Shown one piece after another: positions 377 to 8,041 of a stretch of DNA of 20,676 nucleotides. The notes beneath the pieces were generated by a model that was given only the letters and a program-made list of their open reading frames with translations, had not been told where the DNA came from and ran no database searches. How positions within the stretch are numbered: the first letter of the stretch is position 1; each line of letters opens with the position of its first letter. Where the stretch lies: UHGV virus genome UHGV-0171440; one strand, given 5' to 3'. The DNA comes from a virus. The position numbers and the translations under genes are program-made.

Positions 377-1597
377 TCATGTAATGGTTACTGGCACCTC
401 GACAGATATTCCGTGAATCGGCTCGTTAATCAGTATCTTGATGTTTCCTGACACGTTCTCATCGAAAACAACGTCAAAGACAAGATTTTGAAATATTTGG
501 TTCCGTCGAGATACTAGTGCCTGATGAAAGTAGTTCACAGGCAGATGAAGTGTTGCATTGACCTTGGGTTCAAATGAAATTTCTGGCTCCACTACCGATA
601 CGTATCGTGTTGAAACATCCTGTGGTAAGGATGTTGGGGATAGTTCGATGGTCACCGTTTTCCCGTTGACCTTTACACTCTTCTTCGCAAGAACATTCAG
701 CGGTGAATAGGCGTGATACACAGAAAGGAGAAGTCTCGCCCTGCTTGCCTTGTCAACAATGCTAATAGTCGAAAGCGCATCCCCGCCAGAAGAGTAAGAG
801 GAAACAATATCTACAATACCAGAGTCCTGGGTTATCTTTCGGACTGACAACGTACTGAACCTGTCCTCAAAATCAGTTTCCACCACCAGTTCCGAGAACT
901 GAGCATTCAGCAGGGAAAATGGAACGCTGTAGTGGTAGTTTTTTGTTGCCCTGAACGAATACACAGGGGAAACAAATCTCGGAACCGTTGGATACGCTGC
1001 GGCGGGTCTGTCCAGTTTTGTCGGGTAAGCCGGAACCTTGTAGCCAGCCAGCAGAATATATCTCAACTCGTCGTCTTCGTTCGGTGGATCTATCTCAGCC
1101 ACCTCAACGAGGTTGTAATCATGGTCCTGATTGATAATGGCAACAGGATCACCATAGGCATCAAACCCCAGCAGCTTGTGTTTCCGCTGGTCTACATTTG
1201 GTAGTGGTTCGACTGAAGGCTCAGGAACACGCAGGAAGTGCTTTGTCGCTAAAGCCTTCCCCGCCCCGCTGGCAGGCATAATGTTCGGATAATAGTAAAC
1301 CTGCACATTATTCACGTCATAAACAACCATGCTGTAGGCATCGTCAGTGTAGAACTCAACGACAGCACCGTTATACACACAGTAGCCACCAGAATTAATA
1401 GAAAGAGGCTGTGACACAGGAATGAATTCCCCGCTCTCGTTTTCAATGTAAACGTTAATCTGGTTTTTCTTGATGACAGGGTCTTTGTCAGGCTTACCAA
1501 TATAGATTTGACCATTTGCTATTGGTCTCAGACTGTTTGGATAAGTGAATAACTGCGCAGGGATTCTGACGGCAACGTTTGGGTTAATTGTTGTCAT
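377..1597 (-). CDS. Tailspike / receptor-binding protein (406 aa) with a P22 gp9-like N-terminal head-binding domain and a short divergent C-terminal domain
   Basis: N-terminal ~110 aa (ANGQIYIGKPDKDPV...NQINVYIENESGEF...) resembles the P22 gp9 head-binding domain; the rest does not resemble the P22 beta-helix as I recall it. AGAGG Shine-Dalgarno 5 nt before the ATG. Last gene of the late operon. Confidence 0.8.
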   Translation of the reverse strand: MTTINPNVAVRIPAQLFTYPNSLRPIANGQIYIGKPDKDPVIKKNQINVYIENESGEFIPVSQPLSINSGGYCVYNGAVVEFYTDDAYSMVVYDVNNVQVYYYPNIMPASGAGKALATKHFLRVPEPSVEPLPNVDQRKHKLLGFDAYGDPVAIINQDHDYNLVEVAEIDPPNEDDELRYILLAGYKVPAYPTKLDRPAAAYPTVPRFVSPVYSFRATKNYHYSVPFSLLNAQFSELVVETDFEDRFSTLSVRKITQDSGIVDIVSSYSSGGDALSTISIVDKASRARLLLSVYHAYSPLNVLAKKSVKVNGKTVTIELSPTSLPQDVSTRYVSVVEPEISFEPKVNATLHLPVNYFHQALVSRRNQIFQNLVFDVVFDENVSGNIKILINEPIHGISVEVPVTIT

Positions 1598-1657: not shown

Positions 1658-1879
1658 TTAGTTATCAAAATGTCCGTACGTTTCTTCTTCTTCAGGTGTA
1701 AGGGGGAGAATCTCGACTCTATCTATAGATACCTTTTCAATGTACCCATGAGGTCTACTTAAAATTAAAGCTCTCTCATGCCACAGAACTCCAAGAATGT
1801 GATACCTTCCAGCATCGCCTTTTACCCTGGCTCTTCCTTTGATTCTTGGCGGCATAATGCCATATTTTTTCTTTGCCAT
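1658..1879 (-). CDS. Hypothetical 73-aa protein, translationally coupled to the upstream antirepressor-like gene
   Basis: ORF whose ATG overlaps the upstream stop (TAATG); no recognisable motif; sits between the antirepressor-like gene and the tailspike. Confidence 0.55.
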   Translation of the reverse strand: MAKKKYGIMPPRIKGRARVKGDAGRYHILGVLWHERALILSRPHGYIEKVSIDRVEILPLTPEEEETYGHFDN

Positions 1880-2607
1880 TATGCAACATTACTCCCATGA
1901 ATCAGGTGTTGTAGTGCTTTAACACCTTCCGCATTGTAGCGGAATGCTTCCACCTGTTTGCTGGAATGCGCAGATTTATCCAGGAAGAACTTCCCGTACT
2001 GCTCAGTTTTGAGGTTGTTTGCGTTAGCAATGCGACCAATCTTGTTGGCCGTTACTCCAAGCTGCTCTGCAACCTCCCCTGCTGAGTAGTAGTGTTCTTC
2101 GATTGCTGGTAGAGGAATTGCATTAAAACCGACTATTGGGTTGATTATGCTTGCTGCCGCAGTCTGCTTTGCCTCAGGTGCAAGGTTAGGCATCAAGTCG
2201 AACAGGTTGGTAACTGCTTCAACTGTCATTTTCAGGGTGCGGGCCTGACGGTACTCAACAAGACCAGTTGCTGACTTCCCGTTCTTGATGTGCGCTTCCT
2301 GCATATTTTCAAGTTTATCTACCAGAGAGCGACGTACCGCCTTAGACTCACGAGCGGCCACGCGGAGCGCCTGCTTGATGGACATATCAATGATGACCAT
2401 CGAAGTTTTGTTCGCTTTTTGCACTACACTTTTTGTGTAGTGCTCCCCATCCAGTTCATCTTCAACTTTCTCGATGAATTTGTTATTGCGAACTTCCGGC
2501 TCACCGCACTGTTTGCGTGCTTCATTGACCATCGCCAGCAGAGACTGGCTATCAATAGTTTTATCCGTGACAACGGATCCGATGTTTGCTACATTCTTCA
2601 AAGTCAT
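1879..2607 (-). CDS. Phage antirepressor-family protein (about 242 aa) with a KilAC/ANT-like C-terminal domain
   Basis: Start set at the internal ATG (MTLKNVANIG...) preceded by AAGGAA-n6; C-terminal region (HYYSAGEVAEQLGVTANKIGRIANANNL...) resembles antirepressor C-terminal domains from memory. The domain assignment is not verified. Confidence 0.55.
   Translation of the reverse strand: MTLKNVANIGSVVTDKTIDSQSLLAMVNEARKQCGEPEVRNNKFIEKVEDELDGEHYTKSVVQKANKTSMVIIDMSIKQALRVAARESKAVRRSLVDKLENMQEAHIKNGKSATGLVEYRQARTLKMTVEAVTNLFDLMPNLAPEAKQTAAASIINPIVGFNAIPLPAIEEHYYSAGEVAEQLGVTANKIGRIANANNLKTEQYGKFFLDKSAHSSKQVEAFRYNAEGVKALQHLIHGSNVA
2567..2595 (+). promoter_or_regulatory. Candidate sigma70 promoter on the plus strand, antisense to the 5' end of the 242-aa antirepressor-like gene
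   Basis: -35 GTGACA (2567-2572), 17-bp spacer, extended -10 TGcTACATT (2587-2595). Confidence 0.35.
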
Positions 2608-2676
2608 TAGGCATTCCTTATGTGGTAGTAAGGGTGTGACATAGGCCGCCAGCAGCACACTGGCGGTTTTCTTTTT
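2602..2676 (+). ncRNA. Candidate cis-antisense RNA (about 75 nt) complementary to the start codon and RBS of the 242-aa antirepressor-like gene
   Basis: Bounded by the candidate promoter above and a canonical plus-strand terminator at 2646-2676; it would cover the complement of the ATG (2605-2607) and the AAGGAA Shine-Dalgarno (2613-2618). Confidence 0.3.
2646..2676 (+). terminator. Canonical intrinsic terminator on the plus strand inside a minus-strand operon
   Basis: 7-bp stem CCGCCAG/CTGGCGG with a 7-nt loop, followed by TTTTCTTTTT. No plus-strand protein gene lies upstream of it. Confidence 0.55.
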
Positions 2677-2695
2677 GCGCCGTCCGGCGCACCAA

Positions 2696-3322
2696 TCAAT
2701 GAATCCATTCCTCGCCGCGCAGTTTTGTCAGCATTGGCTGAGCGTTCTTTACGACAAAATTGTTGGTATCAAGATTCTTCATTTCACGAAGAAGTGATTT
2801 CTTGGTTTCTTCTGACATATAGCGAGTCTCATATGCAATATCGTAAATTCTTCCTGAAAGCTCAGAACCAATTTGCTTCATTCCTGGGTAGATGTGTTTG
2901 CACATTTGTTGACTCTTCTCCATCCACAATTGTAAGTAGCAGAGATTAACCAGTTCTTCGTCAGTAAACTGTTTTGCAATCGGTGAGCATTCTGCCTGCC
3001 GATCCAAAATATCCAGCACCCAGCGGCGGAACTCTTTTGCTACAGGAGTGCGAGCAAACATCGCGATTAGGTGGGCACCGCGTAGTGAGAAAACTCGCAC
3101 TTTTTTGCGATAATTTCCTGAGGTACTCACTTCGAGTACCTGAGTCATTCCGGCGCTAAACTCATCGCTATACTTGTTATAAATCATTGTTACTGCACGA
3201 CTATTTGCGTATTTAAGTGCAGATGCAATATTAGATGATGTAAACCAAACACCATGCATATCACGGGTGGGCGCCAACTCAACTCCGTGGAAGTTGTAAT
3301 CTGATTTTGCTACAATGTTCAT
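2696..3322 (-). CDS. Antirepressor (Ant-like) with a Bro-N domain, about 208 aa
   Basis: Start set at the internal ATG (MNIVAKSDYNFHG...) preceded by AAGGAA-n6; N-terminal half resembles the Bro-N antirepressor fold (…VAKEFRRWVLDIL). The longer ORF in the track runs into the arc-like gene in another frame. Confidence 0.75.
   Translation of the reverse strand: MNIVAKSDYNFHGVELAPTRDMHGVWFTSSNIASALKYANSRAVTMIYNKYSDEFSAGMTQVLEVSTSGNYRKKVRVFSLRGAHLIAMFARTPVAKEFRRWVLDILDRQAECSPIAKQFTDEELVNLCYLQLWMEKSQQMCKHIYPGMKQIGSELSGRIYDIAYETRYMSEETKKSLLREMKNLDTNNFVVKNAQPMLTKLRGEEWIH
3308..3316 (+). promoter_or_regulatory. Candidate extended -10 promoter element (TGcTACAAT) for a sar-like antisense RNA
   Basis: TGn plus TACAAT on the plus strand just inside the 5' end of the Bro-N antirepressor gene; no good -35 (TGGAAG, 3/6). 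Confidence 0.35.
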
Positions 3323-3396
3323 GTTAGTTTCCTTGCATACGGTTACTGACATAGAGGCCCGGTTTGTGTTCGCGCACTGCCGGGCTTCGCTATTTT
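3323..3396 (+). ncRNA. Candidate sar-like antisense RNA (about 70 nt) spanning the antirepressor RBS and the arc-ant intercistronic region
   Basis: Position and length mirror the P22 sar RNA as I remember it; it would cover the complement of the antirepressor RBS and end at a plus-strand hairpin (GCCCGG/CCGGGC, 3357-3385) followed by a T-rich tract. Confidence 0.4.
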
Positions 3397-3398
3397 TA
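3356..3398 (+). terminator. Plus-strand terminator-like hairpin in the arc-ant intercistronic region
   Basis: 6-7 bp GC stem with a structured 17-nt loop, then TTCGCTATTTTTAT. The T-run is displaced 8 nt from the stem, so this is a moderate call. Confidence 0.4.
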
Positions 3399-3563
3399 TG
3401 TCCTAGCATTCTTCTCTCCAATCAGTCCGTACACTTTTCTCAATTGATAAATAAGTTCCGTGTTGAACTGTCGACACTCTTTTTCTCCATTTCTTTCAAT
3501 CGCCTTCCTTACATCCTCTGGGAAACGAACCTTGCGTTGATACATGTCTTTTGCTTTTTCCAT
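3396..3563 (-). CDS. arc: Arc-like ribbon-helix-helix repressor, 55 aa (absent from the ORF track, which only lists ORFs of 60 aa or more)
   Basis: Hand translation of the minus strand gives MEKAKDMYQRKVRFPEDVRKAIERNGEKECRQFNTELIYQLRKVYGLIGEKNART; AAGGAG Shine-Dalgarno 5 nt upstream; strand-helix-helix pattern and position upstream of ant match P22 Arc. Confidence 0.65.
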   Translation of the reverse strand: MEKAKDMYQRKVRFPEDVRKAIERNGEKECRQFNTELIYQLRKVYGLIGEKNART

Positions 3564-3580
3564 CTCCACTCCTTAAATAG

Positions 3581-3593
3581 CCCCACTGTGGGG
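3581..3593. promoter_or_regulatory. Palindromic operator candidate 1 (CCCCACTGTGGGG)
   Basis: Perfect 13-bp palindrome, lying between the predicted start site of the arc-ant promoter and the arc Shine-Dalgarno. Confidence 0.5.
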
Positions 3594-3601
3594 CAGTCAA
3601 A

Positions 3602-3630
3602 ATTGTCACACCGTGCGTCATTGAAGTCAA
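3602..3630 (-). promoter_or_regulatory. Candidate promoter for arc-ant (Pant-like)
   Basis: On the minus strand: -35 TTGACT (complement of 3625-3630), 17-bp spacer, -10 GACAAT (complement of 3602-3607). Confidence 0.4.
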
Positions 3631-3649
3631 CCCCACCGTGGGGCATAAT
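3621..3649 (+). promoter_or_regulatory. Candidate promoter for the mnt-like gene (Pmnt-like), overlapping the arc-ant promoter face to face
   Basis: -35 TTGAAG (3621-3626), 17-bp spacer, -10 CATAAT (3644-3649); the two -35 hexamers overlap within the near-palindrome TTGAAGTCAA. Confidence 0.45.
3631..3643. promoter_or_regulatory. Palindromic operator candidate 2 (CCCCACCGTGGGG)
   Basis: Second perfect 13-bp palindrome, 50 bp from the first; fills the spacer of the mnt promoter and abuts the -35 of the arc-ant promoter. Confidence 0.5.
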
Positions 3650-3686
3650 TTACTTATTGTGAATTTTTCCTGTTTGGACTAATGGT

Positions 3687-4061
3687 ATGAGTAGAGAAGA
3701 CCCTCAACTTCGGATTAGGCTTCCTGTTGAATTAAAAAAAATAATTGAAGCGTCATCAAAACAAAATAATCGTTCTATGAATGCTGAGATTGTCACTCTG
3801 CTTGAGTTGGCGATTCGTGTTTGTCGTGATTTTGGGCCGGAGGATGGTCCTATCGTTCAGCAGTTTAAAGAACAACTAGATGCGATAAACAGAAAATATG
3901 ATAAAATCGAGCATGAAAAACTTATACCTCAACTTTTAGAAATCATAGAAAAACAGAAAAAACAAGTAGATAAACTTATTAGCATGGTTGAAAGATCAAT
4001 TCCTCTTTCAGAGGAATATAAGCAGAAATATCTTGGTGATGACAACAAAAAACCCACCTGA
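3687..4061 (+). CDS. mnt: Mnt-like ribbon-helix-helix repressor with a long C-terminal extension (124 aa)
   Basis: N-terminus MSREDPQLRIRLPVELKKIIE...NNRSMNAEIV aligns with P22 Mnt (MARDDPHFNFRMPMEV...NGRSMNSELL) from memory; divergent from arc-ant as in P22 immI; the C-terminal ~80 aa are K/E/Q-rich and probably coiled coil. Confidence 0.8.
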   Translation: MSREDPQLRIRLPVELKKIIEASSKQNNRSMNAEIVTLLELAIRVCRDFGPEDGPIVQQFKEQLDAINRKYDKIEHEKLIPQLLEIIEKQKKQVDKLISMVERSIPLSEEYKQKYLGDDNKKPT

Positions 4062-4079
4062 CGGTGGGTTTCATTTCTT
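4045..4079. terminator. Bidirectional intrinsic terminator between the convergent mnt-like and lipoprotein genes
   Basis: Hairpin AACCCACC-TGAC-GGTGGGTT flanked by an A-run (4047-4052) on one side and TTTCATTTCTT on the other; the mnt stop codon TGA sits in the loop. Confidence 0.6.
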
Positions 4080-4497
4080 AATCTTGCTTCGTGGAAGGTG
4101 TAAGAGATGCGTTTGCCTCTTTTGGCTTCAAGGTATACATCCCACCATTAAATGGATCAACAGCAAGCCAACCAATTAACCCACCAAACACAAGGTTTCC
4201 ACCAATATACCAACCATTAGCATTGGCTTTGATTGGCAGGGTAACTGGTTCGTACCCATCCTTTTCCATAGTGATCTGGTAGCTCTTTTTGCCAAAATAA
4301 CTACCATCTGACTTGGAAAGAGTTACTCCTTGTGGAGTTTTACCTTGCGCAACAATCACACCTGATTCATCTTTTACCTTAAAGCTCGCACCAGAAGGAT
4401 TGCTGTTCACTTGCACAAGTTGCGTTTCATCACCAACAATAGTTGCGCACCCAGATAACATGATAGCGCCAGCAACGACGCTAATAATCCTCTTCAT
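4078..4497 (-). CDS. Lipoprotein with a PEGA-like domain, about 139 aa
   Basis: Start set at MKRIISVVAGAIMLSGC (signal peptide with lipobox LSGC); mature region has PEGA-like motifs (SNPSGASFKV, GKTP, KDGYEPV) and a Gly/Trp-rich hydrophobic stretch (GWYIGGNLVFGGLIGWLAV). Domain call is from memory of the family pattern. Confidence 0.7.
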   Translation of the reverse strand: MKRIISVVAGAIMLSGCATIVGDETQLVQVNSNPSGASFKVKDESGVIVAQGKTPQGVTLSKSDGSYFGKKSYQITMEKDGYEPVTLPIKANANGWYIGGNLVFGGLIGWLAVDPFNGGMYTLKPKEANASLTPSTKQD

Positions 4498-4963
4498 ATC
4501 AATTTCCATTTCGTGAAAACCACAAACATGCTAATAGCAAAACAAAATAATGTGAAGTGCGTACATAAAAAATGTGCGTTTAATAACCACGAGCACGCAG
4601 AGAACTCGAAGAATAATCACACCAACTACACGAAAAGCTAAATACAGACATTAAATATTGTGCAATAGTTATAAATACAACATTTAGTACACACTAAAAT
4701 TATTATACATAAATATATCATTAAAATGATAATCAAGCCGGTTCACACCTCGGCTTTTTAATGTGCGGTTCGCAGAACTCCACAAGGCCACTTTCAAATA
4801 GTGGCGCACTCATTTTTGGCAGTTTTCCCAGATTGAGATTTTTCATCATATCTTGAGATACTAATGGTTTAACCGATAACACTGCACAAAAAGCACAAAC
4901 TTCCCTTTTCTTTTGCCCATAGGATCAGCCCAGTTATGGCTAATTGCTGCAATAGGAGGGCAT

Positions 4964-5860
4964 GTGATTATTGGTAATAGGGTAATGGTTGAGGATAAAG
5001 GTGGACTTACCGCCAAGGACAAAGTGAACGAAAGTTCAAATCATCCTGAATATGAATACAGGATGGTATCTTTATCCATGTCATCAAACAATGCCGCAGC
5101 AATCACCCGTCGCGATATCTCAATCCATATATTTGACGGCGAACCTTTAACCAGAGGGGGGCGCACGCATTATAAGAGCATGTTTGAAAAGGATCTTTCA
5201 GAAAACAGATATATAAAAGCCAATATTAATATGGATTCAGTATCTGATAATATCTTTTGCTTATCCGCAACTGATAGTGGAATGCTTCCAGTCCGACCAT
5301 CTCAGATTATGATATCTATACGTGAAATAAGAGGAGGTAAGTCACCAGAAACATACTGCGGCAAATTTTATTTCAATGATGAAAATGAAGAAAGAGAGTA
5401 CTCTTTTAAGAAGGGAGATAACTCACTTTTCATTTATCTAAATCTTGATTCTTCTATCTTTTCCGACATATTTAACAGCTTAAAAAATGGAGACACGACA
5501 ATTGAATTTGAGATCAACTTTCCTGCTTACGCAGACTGGCTAGATTGGATGGCGGGGGGAGGTTGGCCTACGACATATATCATCAATCCAGCACGTGATG
5601 ATGAAAACTTCATCTCCATAACGAGCATATCGACCTCCCAATCAGCTAATTGGAGAGTTGAAGATGAAGAAACTGAAGTCATTAAAAATGATGACACTTG
5701 CAATTATGAAAATGATATTGAACATAAAGATGTAAATGCATCAATCATTGCCACCAATGAACTTATATCTAACCATTCTATCCACACAAAACGGTTAACA
5801 TCTTACTTAGCAATAATCACATTTTGCTTAATAATATTAACTATTAAGGTTTGTTTCTAA
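4964..5860 (+). CDS. Hypothetical acidic, Ser/Asn-rich protein with a single C-terminal transmembrane anchor; start uncertain (TTG 4913, GTG 4964 after AGGAGG, or ATG 4985)
   Basis: Long ORF opposite to the late operon and convergent with the gp16-like gene; visibly AT-rich relative to the late genes; C-terminus LTSYLAIITFCLIILTIKVCF is a hydrophobic tail anchor; no catalytic motif recognised. Confidence 0.7.
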   Translation: MIIGNRVMVEDKGGLTAKDKVNESSNHPEYEYRMVSLSMSSNNAAAITRRDISIHIFDGEPLTRGGRTHYKSMFEKDLSENRYIKANINMDSVSDNIFCLSATDSGMLPVRPSQIMISIREIRGGKSPETYCGKFYFNDENEEREYSFKKGDNSLFIYLNLDSSIFSDIFNSLKNGDTTIEFEINFPAYADWLDWMAGGGWPTTYIINPARDDENFISITSISTSQSANWRVEDEETEVIKNDDTCNYENDIEHKDVNASIIATNELISNHSIHTKRLTSYLAIITFCLIILTIKVCF

Positions 5861-5911
5861 CAGCCGTCCTTGGCTGACTGTATGGTGACAACCAAGTAGA
5901 TTTTCGCTCCC

Positions 5912-8041
5912 TTATTGTATTTTTGATTGTGCGTCTGTATCTGCGCTATCCTGTTGAGATAACCACGTGGTAAACCCAAGACGTGCAATTGTGCGCCTGT
6001 CACGTTCTGGAAGTGATTCAAAAAAACGCCTCCAGTGAGGAGAGCGCCTGATGCGAGATTCGGTAACATGGTCAGGCGCTTTGCCAAGCAGATTTTTAAC
6101 CGCACTCTGGAAAGCTGGTGAAGAAATTAACTTATCTGCGGCATCCGTCGCCCCTGCACCGCCTGCAATCTGGGCTTTACGTGCAACCATTGTGCCAATA
6201 TCATGGCCTGCAACAGCCCCCAGTGGCCCATAGAATGAACCAACCATAGTACCTGCTCTTTGTGCATATTTCGATACCAGTTGATAGGGAGTCGTGACCT
6301 TACTGAATCTGTCAGTAAACTCATTCAGCTTTCCGGTAGAAATTTCGTGTGATTTGGCATTTTTTATTGCTCTGGCGACTTTATAGGCATCGTACAAGCC
6401 GCGCATTGCCTCTCTCGGCAGATGTCTGGCTAGTAATTTAAGTTGCCCATGATGCTGCATGTTTTGCCACCAGTCAGCAAAACCAGACGGATTAAAGTCT
6501 GCCCCACGTTTCCCCAGTGAAAGCATATCCCTTAGCGCTGTTCCGATAAGTTCTGTTCTTAGAGTACGTGATGGCGTGTTTTGCATTATATCTAGGAATG
6601 TTTTTGAATTTCCTTTTGCCATAGACTGGAGAGCATTTGTTGTTTTGTAAGCAATATCTCCGTTCAGCGTTTTTCCACGGAGATTTATCATCTGACTCTC
6701 TATATTTTTTCGCATGGCGACAAGGCGCTGCGCCACCTCAAAATCCCGCGCGTATCCTGAATCAGAAAGGATGGCTTTCTGGTCTTCTGACAAAGAAGCG
6801 TACAACCTTGATAAGGCTGTTCTGTCTGCGTCTTTATACGGCCCTGACTTTTTATCCAGCGCATCTCCAACAAGCCTCCTCTGCTTGTTTAAATTTGCGT
6901 ACGTCAGGATACCCTCAGGCCCCGGATTTACTGCTTTAAAAACCTGCTTTTCAATTAATTCGAGATTCTCCCATCCCCCCAAATCATCGGCGATTTTCTC
7001 CAGCATAGCGCTTGTTTTAGGGGCTTCAACTTCTGCTCCCGGAATCATGGCGGAATCAACACGCTTATATAGCTGGTCGCTACGTTGTATTAGCGCTTCC
7101 ATCCGGTTATCTATATTAGAGATATACTTTTCATTCATTCCCAGCGCATCGGAAGCACCTGCAATATCATCAATTATCCTGCCGGCACTGGAAGCCAGTT
7201 CACTTATTGCTTTGTCCTCCTGAGTTTTAAGGGCGGATCCGGTCCGTGATTTTATTGCCTGCTCTACTGCCTGATACTGAGCATTCCCTGACAGGTGAGA
7301 AGGAAGAATTGACTCAACCCCCAGTCTTTTGGCGGCTTCGGCAATGTCTTTTTGTGGTTTTATATCCAGTTCCCTTACCGCCGTGGATAAATCTGGATTT
7401 TTTTGTGTCGACAACTCTCTTAGTTTCCTTTCCGTTGTATTGGCTCCATCAATACTGGCACTCCTTCCGGTTACTTTCCCCGCCACTTTTCGAATAGCTG
7501 GGCCAGCGAGTTCTGCCACGGGACCAGCCACAGCCCCAATAGCAGCACCGGAAGCAACATCGCTATTTGTTCCATTGGCTACAATAGCCCCTTCTCCAGC
7601 ACCAAGCCCTGCGGCGGCAGCCAGCCTTGCCGCCCCTTTCGGAACCTGAGAAATAATCCCACCACCACTAACAAATGGTGCTGCTTGTCCAACGAACTCA
7701 CCAACATCTTGTGCGGTTGATGGTTTTGCCGCTAACTTCTGCTGTAGAGACTGAATTGCGGCTTGCTCTTCTGGTGTCATATCCTGAAATAGACCAACAC
7801 CTTTACCAACATCCATCAATCCACTGAGAACGCCATACATAAAACGGTCGAAACCGTTAGCATTATTAACAACATTTTCCTGCCTGGAATTTTCCTCTGG
7901 TGAAACCAAAGGTGATTGCTGCTGCTCTGGTTGGGAATCAAGCACAAAACCATCAGGAAGCTGTGAACTATCAGGAAACTGTGAGTTATCAGGTTGTTCA
8001 TCGAGCACAAAACCTTCCGGTAAGATTACATTTGCTGCCAT
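5912..8041 (-). CDS. Ejection (internal virion) protein, gp16-like, 709 aa
   Basis: Third large gene after the gp7- and gp20-like genes; Gly/Ala-rich stretches; start overlaps the gp20-like stop. Assignment is mainly by position. Confidence 0.7.
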   Translation of the reverse strand: MAANVILPEGFVLDEQPDNSQFPDSSQLPDGFVLDSQPEQQQSPLVSPEENSRQENVVNNANGFDRFMYGVLSGLMDVGKGVGLFQDMTPEEQAAIQSLQQKLAAKPSTAQDVGEFVGQAAPFVSGGGIISQVPKGAARLAAAAGLGAGEGAIVANGTNSDVASGAAIGAVAGPVAELAGPAIRKVAGKVTGRSASIDGANTTERKLRELSTQKNPDLSTAVRELDIKPQKDIAEAAKRLGVESILPSHLSGNAQYQAVEQAIKSRTGSALKTQEDKAISELASSAGRIIDDIAGASDALGMNEKYISNIDNRMEALIQRSDQLYKRVDSAMIPGAEVEAPKTSAMLEKIADDLGGWENLELIEKQVFKAVNPGPEGILTYANLNKQRRLVGDALDKKSGPYKDADRTALSRLYASLSEDQKAILSDSGYARDFEVAQRLVAMRKNIESQMINLRGKTLNGDIAYKTTNALQSMAKGNSKTFLDIMQNTPSRTLRTELIGTALRDMLSLGKRGADFNPSGFADWWQNMQHHGQLKLLARHLPREAMRGLYDAYKVARAIKNAKSHEISTGKLNEFTDRFSKVTTPYQLVSKYAQRAGTMVGSFYGPLGAVAGHDIGTMVARKAQIAGGAGATDAADKLISSPAFQSAVKNLLGKAPDHVTESRIRRSPHWRRFFESLPERDRRTIARLGFTTWLSQQDSADTDAQSKIQ

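Follow-up and report, generated by a model that had tools for sequence, protein, structure and literature searches.

Two unrelated antirepressor-type genes, each with a predicted antisense RNA over its start, at the immI position of a P22-like virus genome

The P22 record contains a single antirepressor gene, ant, in the place before the tailspike gene, which confirms what a preliminary description of the DNA studied here had said of P22. In this DNA, a stretch of 20,676 nucleotides (nt) of the UHGV virus genome UHGV-0171440 that is called the window below, the same place is occupied by three open reading frames (ORFs), designated gene A, gene B and orf73. The question raised by this locus is whether A and B are two halves or two copies of one antirepressor or two different proteins, and how their synthesis would be controlled. 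We consider it probable, rather than certain, that the locus is a variant form of immI, the secondary-immunity operon of P22, with genes for two unrelated and complete antirepressor-type proteins, gating by an Mnt-like protein, Arc and two antisense RNAs, and orf73 as a rider. The three genes are as follows:

3322-2696, minus strand: gene A, 208 amino acids (aa) from ATG, AAGGAA 6 nt 5' of the ATG
2607-1879, minus strand: gene B, 242 aa from ATG, AAGGAA 6 nt 5' of the ATG
1879-1658, minus strand: orf73, 73 aa, basic N-terminus and acidic C-terminus

All three genes are on the minus strand, with coordinates as first described. The ATG of orf73 and the stop codon of gene B have one base in common (gcaTAATGgca), and the presence of a coupled basic/acidic ORF of 73 aa is thereby confirmed. 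Full-length matches to PHROG families were found for A (phrog_245 'anti-repressor Ant', E 9e-54), B (phrog_1726 'anti-repressor', E 6e-99) and orf73 (phrog_4977 'unknown', E 5.5e-53). Therefore, they represent real gene families and not chance ORFs.

The Bro-N domain (PF02498) that had been proposed for the 208-aa protein was found in residues 24-105 of gene A, with a score of 41.5 bits at a gathering cut-off of 25.6 (E 2e-10). A second domain, P22_AR_C (PF10548), occupies residues 117-184 (53.4 bits, cut-off 22.4, E 2.8e-14), and this C-domain is 29% identical to residues 206-274 of P22 Ant. P22_AR_N (PF10547) has no match in gene A at E<=1, and Bro-N stands in its place. In Stx2a phages, P22_AR_C is fused to an AntA N-domain; the Ant protein of Phi24B, which has the same C-domain as gene A, is reported to have a likely role in promoting efficient prophage induction (PMC3064807). 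Gene A is also present, without gene B, in Salmonella phage SPN3UB, where it is annotated as 'anti-repressor Ant' (93% DNA identity). By its domain content, gene A is a complete two-module antirepressor-type protein, composed of Bro-N and the C-terminal domain of P22 Ant, and can usefully be annotated as a Bro-N::P22_AR_C antirepressor-type protein.

Gene B is not matched by any Pfam model, nor are its 35 close relatives, and the N-terminal domains Bro-N, KilA-N, Rha and AntA are absent from all of them by this measure. Pfam, NCBIfam and PADLOC yielded nothing significant for gene B or orf73, and a PDB sequence search returned nothing for either. Among Bro-N, AntA, Rha and KilAC, the domains for which Pfam searches had been suggested, only Bro-N was found, in A, and none of them was found in B. 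At the same time, residues 14-106 of gene B show 68% identity over 95 residues to residues 112-206 of P1 Ant1 (E 1e-40), a segment corresponding to the N-terminal part of Ant2. Against C1, P1 uses an antirepressor complex made up of Ant1 and Ant2 (P1 record annotation; PMC8546580).

Gene B is laid out as an N-module (residues ~14-106), a helical linker and a C-module (~106-240). A profile search among 1.84 billion representative proteins revealed 1207 relatives, in which the two halves occur independently of each other. In the relatives that have only the C-half (n=40), the N-partner is Bro-N in 11, KilA-N in nine, Rha in seven, ORF6N in six, AntA in four and P22_AR_N in two, while ANT/KilAC stands behind the N-half in 4 of the 18 relatives that have only this half. 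Because the halves occur independently, they can be assigned to the N-slot and the C-slot of a known set of shuffled modules. Iyer, Koonin and Aravind are said to have described in 2002 this domain-shuffling set of phages (Bro-N/KilA-N/Rha/AntA/ORF6N plus KilAC/ORF6C/P22_AR_C). Both A and B share with it the order of N-module, linker and C-module, and the C-module of B is found behind all six classic N-domains; the difference is that neither module of B is matched by current Pfam models. The modules of gene B are, as far as sequence comparison goes, additional members of the shuffling set and not instances of its named domains. Gene B appears on these grounds to be a complete two-module antirepressor-type protein with the N-module of P1 Ant2 and a C-module that has no Pfam model. 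It defines two protein modules absent from Pfam, and a usable annotation would be P1-Ant-N::new C-module antirepressor-type protein.

A KilAC/ANT-like C-terminus had been attributed to the 242-aa protein, and this attribution was not upheld. The Pfam model ANT/KilAC (PF03374) does not match gene B at E<=1, its 35 close relatives at E<=0.1 or 40 distant relatives at E<=0.001. An hhalign comparison of the gene B C-half profile (effective number of sequences, Neff, 4.6) with a profile of P1-type KilAC, which is thin (Neff 1.8), gave a probability of 0.3%; hhalign also found no link between the N-half and KilAC or between the C-half and the N-half. The AlphaFold2 model of gene B has a mean predicted local distance difference test (pLDDT) value of 72, with domain blocks near 80. 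Searched against BFVD, it aligns over its full length with viral proteins annotated as antirepressor, 'KilAC domain' or KilA, with E-values down to 2e-9. Possibly, the modelled fold of gene B is common to it and N-domain antirepressor proteins, which does not in itself establish membership of their family. The 'KilAC-like C-terminus' is, in terms of sequence, an architectural analogy and not a demonstrated homology: the C-half of B fills the KilAC slot only.

These results bear directly on the suggestion that one canonical antirepressor, Bro-N plus KilAC, has been split into A and B, or that the two are duplicates of each other. The Bro-N domain of A, the KilAC labels among the proteins returned by the fold search with B, and the adjacency of the two genes in one predicted operon are in keeping with it. 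However, A already has a C-terminal P22_AR_C of its own, B has its own N-module homologous to P1 Ant2, both halves of B shuffle as independent modules, and the KilAC comparisons for B and its relatives were negative. Furthermore, A occurs without B in SPN3UB, and B occurs without A in phiKp_30. As for duplication, no similarity between A and B can be detected (best BLASTP E 0.21), so by this comparison the two genes are not paralogues. A split or duplicated antirepressor is therefore highly improbable, and A and B are better regarded as two complete proteins.

The features that place these two genes in an immI region and would control them are as follows:

3687-4061, plus strand: mnt-like gene, transcribed away from the ant operon, for a ribbon-helix-helix repressor of 124 aa (Pfam Arc domain, E 3e-7)
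3563-3396, minus strand: arc-like ribbon-helix-helix gene, 55 aa, the first gene of the operon (Pfam Arc, E 1e-3)
3581-3595 and 3631-3645: two 15-base-pair (bp) palindromes CCCCAC-N-GTGGGG(CA) of the control region, found with a repeat finder
3630-3625 (-35, TTGACT) and 3607-3602 (-10, GACAAT), minus strand: Pant-like promoter, predicted by promoter scan
3621-3626 (-35) and 3644-3649 (-10), plus strand: Pmnt-like promoter, predicted by promoter scan
1651-1632, minus strand: operon terminator hairpin, within the conserved 50-bp segment 1617-1666
377-1597, minus strand: tailspike gene, the end of the ant moron (Pfam Head_binding, E 8e-37, residues 1-107)

The gene order is mnt-like, divergent promoters, arc-like, A, B, orf73, terminator and tailspike; in a P22-like genome of the Lederbergvirus type, this is the immI position, also called the 'ant moron'. 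P22 itself has mnt, arc, a single ant gene and then gene 9 there. The ant-moron region is known to be hypervariable, with 'ten types in sixteen genomes' (Villafane et al. 2008, PMC2629481). The N-terminal 43 aa of the mnt-like protein are 33% identical to P22 Mnt, and its gene is followed by a hairpin at 4050-4071. The arc-like gene has an ATG at 3563 in an ORF that opens at GTG 3569; its product is 33% identical to P22 Arc, its Pfam match is slightly under the gathering score, and its orthologue in E. coli 55989 is named 'Arc family DNA-binding protein' in RefSeq. The 50-bp segment that separates the ant region from the tailspike gene shows 92% identity to its counterparts in P22, epsilon34, CUS-3 and others, whose records label it 'terminator' or 'bsq1; boundary sequence'. 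The Arc/Mnt neighbours, the terminator and the tailspike gene support the earlier view that this is an enlarged antirepressor region at the P22 immI position.

Both 15-bp palindromes flank the Pant-like promoter and overlap the Pmnt-like promoter. Their core CCAC(G/A)GTGG is common to the palindrome AGGTCCACCGTGGACCT of the P22 mnt-arc intergenic region, which we take to be the Mnt operator. The resemblance of both window palindromes to the palindrome of the P22 mnt-arc spacer can also be noted for the core CCACNGTGG. By analogy, the 15-bp palindromes may be Mnt-type operators that the Mnt-like protein would use. No Arc-type operator was recognised in the control region of the window, and the Arc-like protein may share the palindrome site or use an unrecognised one.

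The layout of the P22-type immI operon, with mnt, arc, divergent promoters and operators, and ant before the tailspike gene, is found here, operator occupancy and promoter activity being presumed. As in P22, the region lies between ejection-protein genes and the tailspike gene (PMC2629481), with divergent mnt-like and arc-like ribbon-helix-helix genes, palindromes resembling the Mnt operator, a predicted antisense RNA over the ribosome-binding site of the first ant gene, a gene A product that shares the C-domain of P22 Ant, and the conserved terminator/boundary sequence before the tailspike gene. The differences are the following: the window has two antirepressor-type genes and orf73, whereas P22 has one ant gene; the N-domain of A is Bro-N, whereas that of P22 Ant is P22_AR_N; the mnt-like protein has 124 aa versus 83 aa for P22 Mnt; and the window has two Mnt-type palindromes and no recognisable Arc-type operator. 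In addition, its sar homologue is too divergent for the Rfam family of P22 sar, and a second, unrelated antisense unit is predicted over the gene B start. The two units are:

3308-3399, plus strand: unit 1, predicted sar homologue, antisense to the gene A ribosome-binding site, with an extended -10 tTGcTACAAT at 3308-3316
2567-2693, plus strand: sar2, predicted from scans and covariation, antisense to the gene B ribosome-binding site

The extended -10 of unit 1 is 3 nt from the complement of the gene A start codon. Its predicted RNA (~3323-3399) forms two stem-loops and has a T-run that ends at the arc stop codon. In position, orientation and two-hairpin fold, unit 1 is like P22 sar (z -5.6 vs. 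-5.0). As predicted, it fits the architecture of the ~70-nt sar, which extends from the ant start codon to a terminator in the arc-ant spacer. The Rfam sar family RF00262 has no match in the window at E<=10, nor in 15 related loci, with a score of 97.8 bits for the P22 control. A 19-sequence MAFFT alignment of unit 1 was out of register across the hairpin and was replaced by an alignment of 11 window-type sequences (A7), from which a covariance model, R1, was built with P22 left out. Model R1 recovers P22 sar with 38.3 bits (E 1.6e-5) at exactly the RF00262 coordinates. Because a model built without P22 finds P22 sar, unit 1 is considered to be a divergent sar homologue. The terminator stem of unit 1 has 14 pairs, two of them with compensatory changes. 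A match to Rfam symR at 3320-3391 is sub-threshold; it is not evidence of symR and only points to an antisense-RNA-like shape.

Two or three matches of model R1 per locus can be noted elsewhere, as in Xenorhabdus yunnanensis (L023; 1166-1241, 3514-3587 and 4559-4638). Multiple matches are also present in loci L022, L025 and L021, some of them directly 3' of a B-like gene. This suggests that there are further antirepressor genes in arrays, each with a predicted sar-like antisense unit.

The sar2 promoter is predicted to comprise a -35 GTGACA (2567-2572), a 17-nt spacer and a -10 tTGcTACATT ending at 2595, and it lies wholly within codons 3-14 of gene B. A hairpin at 2643-2669 is followed by a T-run, and the predicted RNA extends over ~2602-2680. 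This T-run exists only on the antisense strand, so the sense transcript is not terminated by the hairpin. Over 10 loci that represent several genera, there are 9 pairs in the stem, with 98.9% of cells paired; three of the nine pairs show compensatory changes, and none of 500 shuffles was as good. Model R2, which was built without the window, matches it at 2603-2693 on the plus strand with 58.5 bits (E 2.9e-10). The model also matches the 5' ends of second-position antirepressor genes with other N-domains, and gives no match to P22 sar or unit 1. Although disorder is predicted for residues 1-15 of gene B, V13 and T14 hardly vary; this would be explained by the sar2 promoter embedded in these codons.

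A small antisense RNA of its own seems to gate each of the two antirepressor genes. We propose tentatively, as an idea that could well be right, that each immI antirepressor is gated by its own cis-antisense RNA and that the predicted sar2 is a family outside Rfam, spread over Enterobacterales, which constrains the first 14 codons. In the literature searched, outside which most subscription journals lay, no paper was found on a second sar-like RNA or on an immI with two antirepressors.

The analysis shows the gene structure, the domain content, the homologies, the synteny and a conserved layout of antisense promoters and terminators with covariation. How the operators are used, whether the RNAs are made, which repressors A and B bind and why there are two antirepressors is inferred, in the following course of events. 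In a lysogen, the Mnt-like repressor would silence the Pant-like promoter. Upon infection or loss of Mnt, one transcript would yield Arc, A, B and orf73, the last translated by coupling to B, and would end at the hairpin before the tailspike gene. Arc and the two cis-antisense RNAs, the latter covering each ribosome-binding site, would limit antirepressor synthesis. A and B would each bind prophage repressors of the CI/C2 type and inactivate them without cleavage. With two antirepressors, a broader or more diverse set of repressors would probably be neutralised.

Several points weigh against this interpretation. Promoter-like sites are at least as frequent in shuffled sequence as in this region, and since the sar2 promoter is located within a gene, some of its conservation could be due to the encoded protein. 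The cognate repressor gene lies outside the window. That A has one domain in common with P22 Ant, and B one with P1 Ant, is no proof that they act as antirepressors, and many 'antirepressor' labels on Bro-N/KilAC-type proteins are given by homology only; no experiment on the cassette was found in the literature searched. Finally, the C-terminal winged helix modelled for B resembles DNA-binding domains, and B could therefore bind DNA instead.

The latter point can be developed into a different explanation, according to which B, and perhaps A, is a DNA-binding transcription factor that serves, for example, lytic gene activation or read-through into the tailspike gene. When the last ~65 residues of gene B were compared with PDB structures, RacA, NmlR, BldC and Tn916 Xis were found (template-modelling score 0.5-0.66 on the target), and in the model the end of the C-module looks like a winged helix of the MerR/Xis type. 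Six relatives of gene B have weak Pfam HTH_17 matches, and Bro-N and KilA-N domains are generally regarded as DNA-binding. On the other hand, all the PDB matches are weak (E>0.1), and anti-immunity is indicated by the immI position, by the Mnt, Arc and antisense control, and by the homology to the Ant proteins of P22 and P1. A role of B as a transcription factor is accordingly unlikely, and the anti-immunity function of A and B is preferred.

The Ant1/Ant2 system of P1, which belongs to the c4-icd-ant operon of P1 immI and from which the N-module of B is known, is similar to the window in another respect. In P1, the c4 antisense RNA checks the antirepressor via translation (P1 record annotation; PMC8546580), so that antirepressors in both cases are checked at translation by antisense RNA, as predicted for the window. 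Unlike the window unit sar2, which is a cis-antisense unit, c4 is processed from the same transcript and has separate target sites. P1 Ant has a KilAC/ANT C-domain, to which the C-half of B is unrelated, and B lacks an N-terminal extension of the Ant1 type.

To assess how widely the two genes occur together, one genome per species was scanned, and 54 loci were recovered. Eight of them, from Serratia, Citrobacter, Kluyvera, Proteus, Buttiauxella, Dryocola and two further contigs, have a Bro-N gene directly 5' of a full-length B homologue; most of these A-B tandem loci also have an mnt-like gene, an arc-like gene or both upstream. In the Citrobacter unit, the whole cassette stands between a gene-16 homologue and the tailspike gene. 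A contig labelled Chryseobacterium sp. 18061 (L013) carries an arc-A-B cassette of the enterobacterial type with a Bro-N 82% identical to that of the window, and its label may be due to contamination or mislabelling. The same cassette is present in phage JEP4, annotated as 'Rha protein', 'KilA protein' and 'hypothetical', and in a prophage of E. coli 55989 at tRNA-Arg/intS, annotated as 'P22AR C-terminal domain-containing', 'hypothetical' and 'hypothetical'; the gene B copies of the window and 55989 differ at 87 codons. At >=80% of its length, gene B was found in 89 of 5426 complete E. coli genomes and gene A in 37, with partial matches to A in more, and orf73 was found in 54. The arc-A-B order is thus already common in enterobacterial prophages: it was met in at least eight genera, in JEP4 and in ~1-2% of the complete E. 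coli genomes.

When the window is compared with JEP4, the N-module of A is 57% identical and its C-module 99%, and the corresponding values for B are 81% and 97%. Since the N-modules differ far more than the C-modules, recombination appears to take place at the module junctions. The mosaic junctions are sharp and coincide with domain boundaries, and the adjacent orf73 differs at 4 codons.

In the Stx2a phage Stx2a_F451 (L003, 2998-5211), a B homologue, an antirepressor pseudogene and an AntA::P22_AR_C antirepressor follow in a row near xis/int. Stx2a phages are a second, independent context in which both families co-occur. The B homologue is 63% identical and is located near the AntA::P22_AR_C protein (genes 06-08), which is 31% identical to A, mostly over the C-domain. 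In contrast to the window, the pair is in the early-left region near xis and not in an immI moron, and its order is reversed; in the fetched stretch, neither arc nor mnt was seen, and model R2 detects no sar2 unit.

Alternatively, A and B might form a hetero-oligomeric antirepressor, comparable to the P1 Ant1/Ant2 complex, instead of acting as two independent ones. A Bro-N gene followed by a B-type gene is kept in at least eight genera; Stx2a phages also have a B homologue next to an AntA::P22_AR_C protein; and the protein that supplies the N-module of B is one that works as part of a complex (P1 record; PMC8546580). However, each gene is also found alone, A in SPN3UB and B in phiKp_30. The reversed order in Stx2a phages, with a pseudogene between the genes, and the predicted antisense gate of each gene likewise speak for independence, and the exchange of N-modules independently of C-modules between the window and JEP4 is not easily expected in a co-adapted pair. 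We regard a complex of A and B as improbable, and two independent antirepressors remain the preferred reading.

The third gene is of a different kind. As had been stated earlier, the 73-aa ORF has no assignable function. Its AlphaFold model, constructed from 9 sequences, is a compact five-strand barrel with a helix (core pLDDT ~80), and the predicted barrel is SH3-like; in its distribution, orf73 is a narrow orphan. P1 Icd, which also has 73 aa and is encoded next to ant, upstream of it, was considered and ruled out as unrelated. The A-rich run at the start of orf73 (1820-1879, codons 1-19; aaagaaaaaatatgg) appears to be indel-prone. In database variants, the first ~19 residues are in another frame, starting from an ATG 8 nt upstream inside gene B, and these frame-shifted variants rejoin the conserved core at VKGDAGRY.

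It may be asked whether orf73 is functional at all or is a young or accidental ORF in the spacer from B to the boundary sequence. Its spread is very narrow (8 clusters, all >=79% identical), and none of the other genera examined has it 3' of B. Around the A-run, several variants read the first 19 residues in another frame, and the Shine-Dalgarno-like GGGAG is far from the ATG (12 nt). About 4 codons differ between copies, with 2-3 synonymous and 1-2 non-synonymous substitutions, which are too few for a selection test. On the other side are the full-length match to a PHROG family, the predicted compact barrel, the TAATG overlap and the terminator directly after the stop codon, which fit a real last cistron, and the preservation of orf73 at 95-99% identity in 54 E. 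coli genomes. A non-functional orf73 therefore seems rather doubtful. We regard orf73 as a recent, lineage-restricted rider outside the conserved system.

Some further features of the neighbouring DNA can be noted. The tailspike has only 406 aa, versus ~667 aa for the P22 tailspike gene (43-2046 in the P22 record used), and has a normal P22 head-binding domain; its C-terminal part of ~300 aa has no Pfam family match, so that the receptor-binding part is of an unrecognised type. The GC content falls to 0.36-0.39 at 3500-6000, versus ~0.50 elsewhere, between the mnt-like gene and a gene for a 709-aa ejection-protein-like product. This stretch encodes a predicted lipoprotein of 143 aa (4078-4509, minus strand), whose signal peptide ends in Cys and which has a weak PEGA match (E 0.0035), and an orphan of 315 aa (4913-5860, plus strand) with a hydrophobic C-terminus and no Pfam or PADLOC match. 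Both occupy the place of P22 sieA and therefore may be moron/exclusion genes.

Taken as a whole, the cassette is a variant, ordinary but uncharacterised, of a system that is known; public phage and bacterial genomes already contain it, and it leaves the understanding of how immI systems work unchanged. Its modestly novel element is the predicted antisense gating of each gene, which indicates a testable layer of control. Clinically relevant E. coli such as strain 55989 harbour the cassette in prophages, and two of the three genes are still called 'hypothetical' there. Antirepressors decide when a prophage wakes up and can act in trans on other prophages of the same cell; therefore, a phage with two different ones may be able to induce, or to overcome, more kinds of resident prophage. 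If each antirepressor indeed has its own antisense gate, tandem antirepressor arrays would be sets of independently gated anti-immunity modules.

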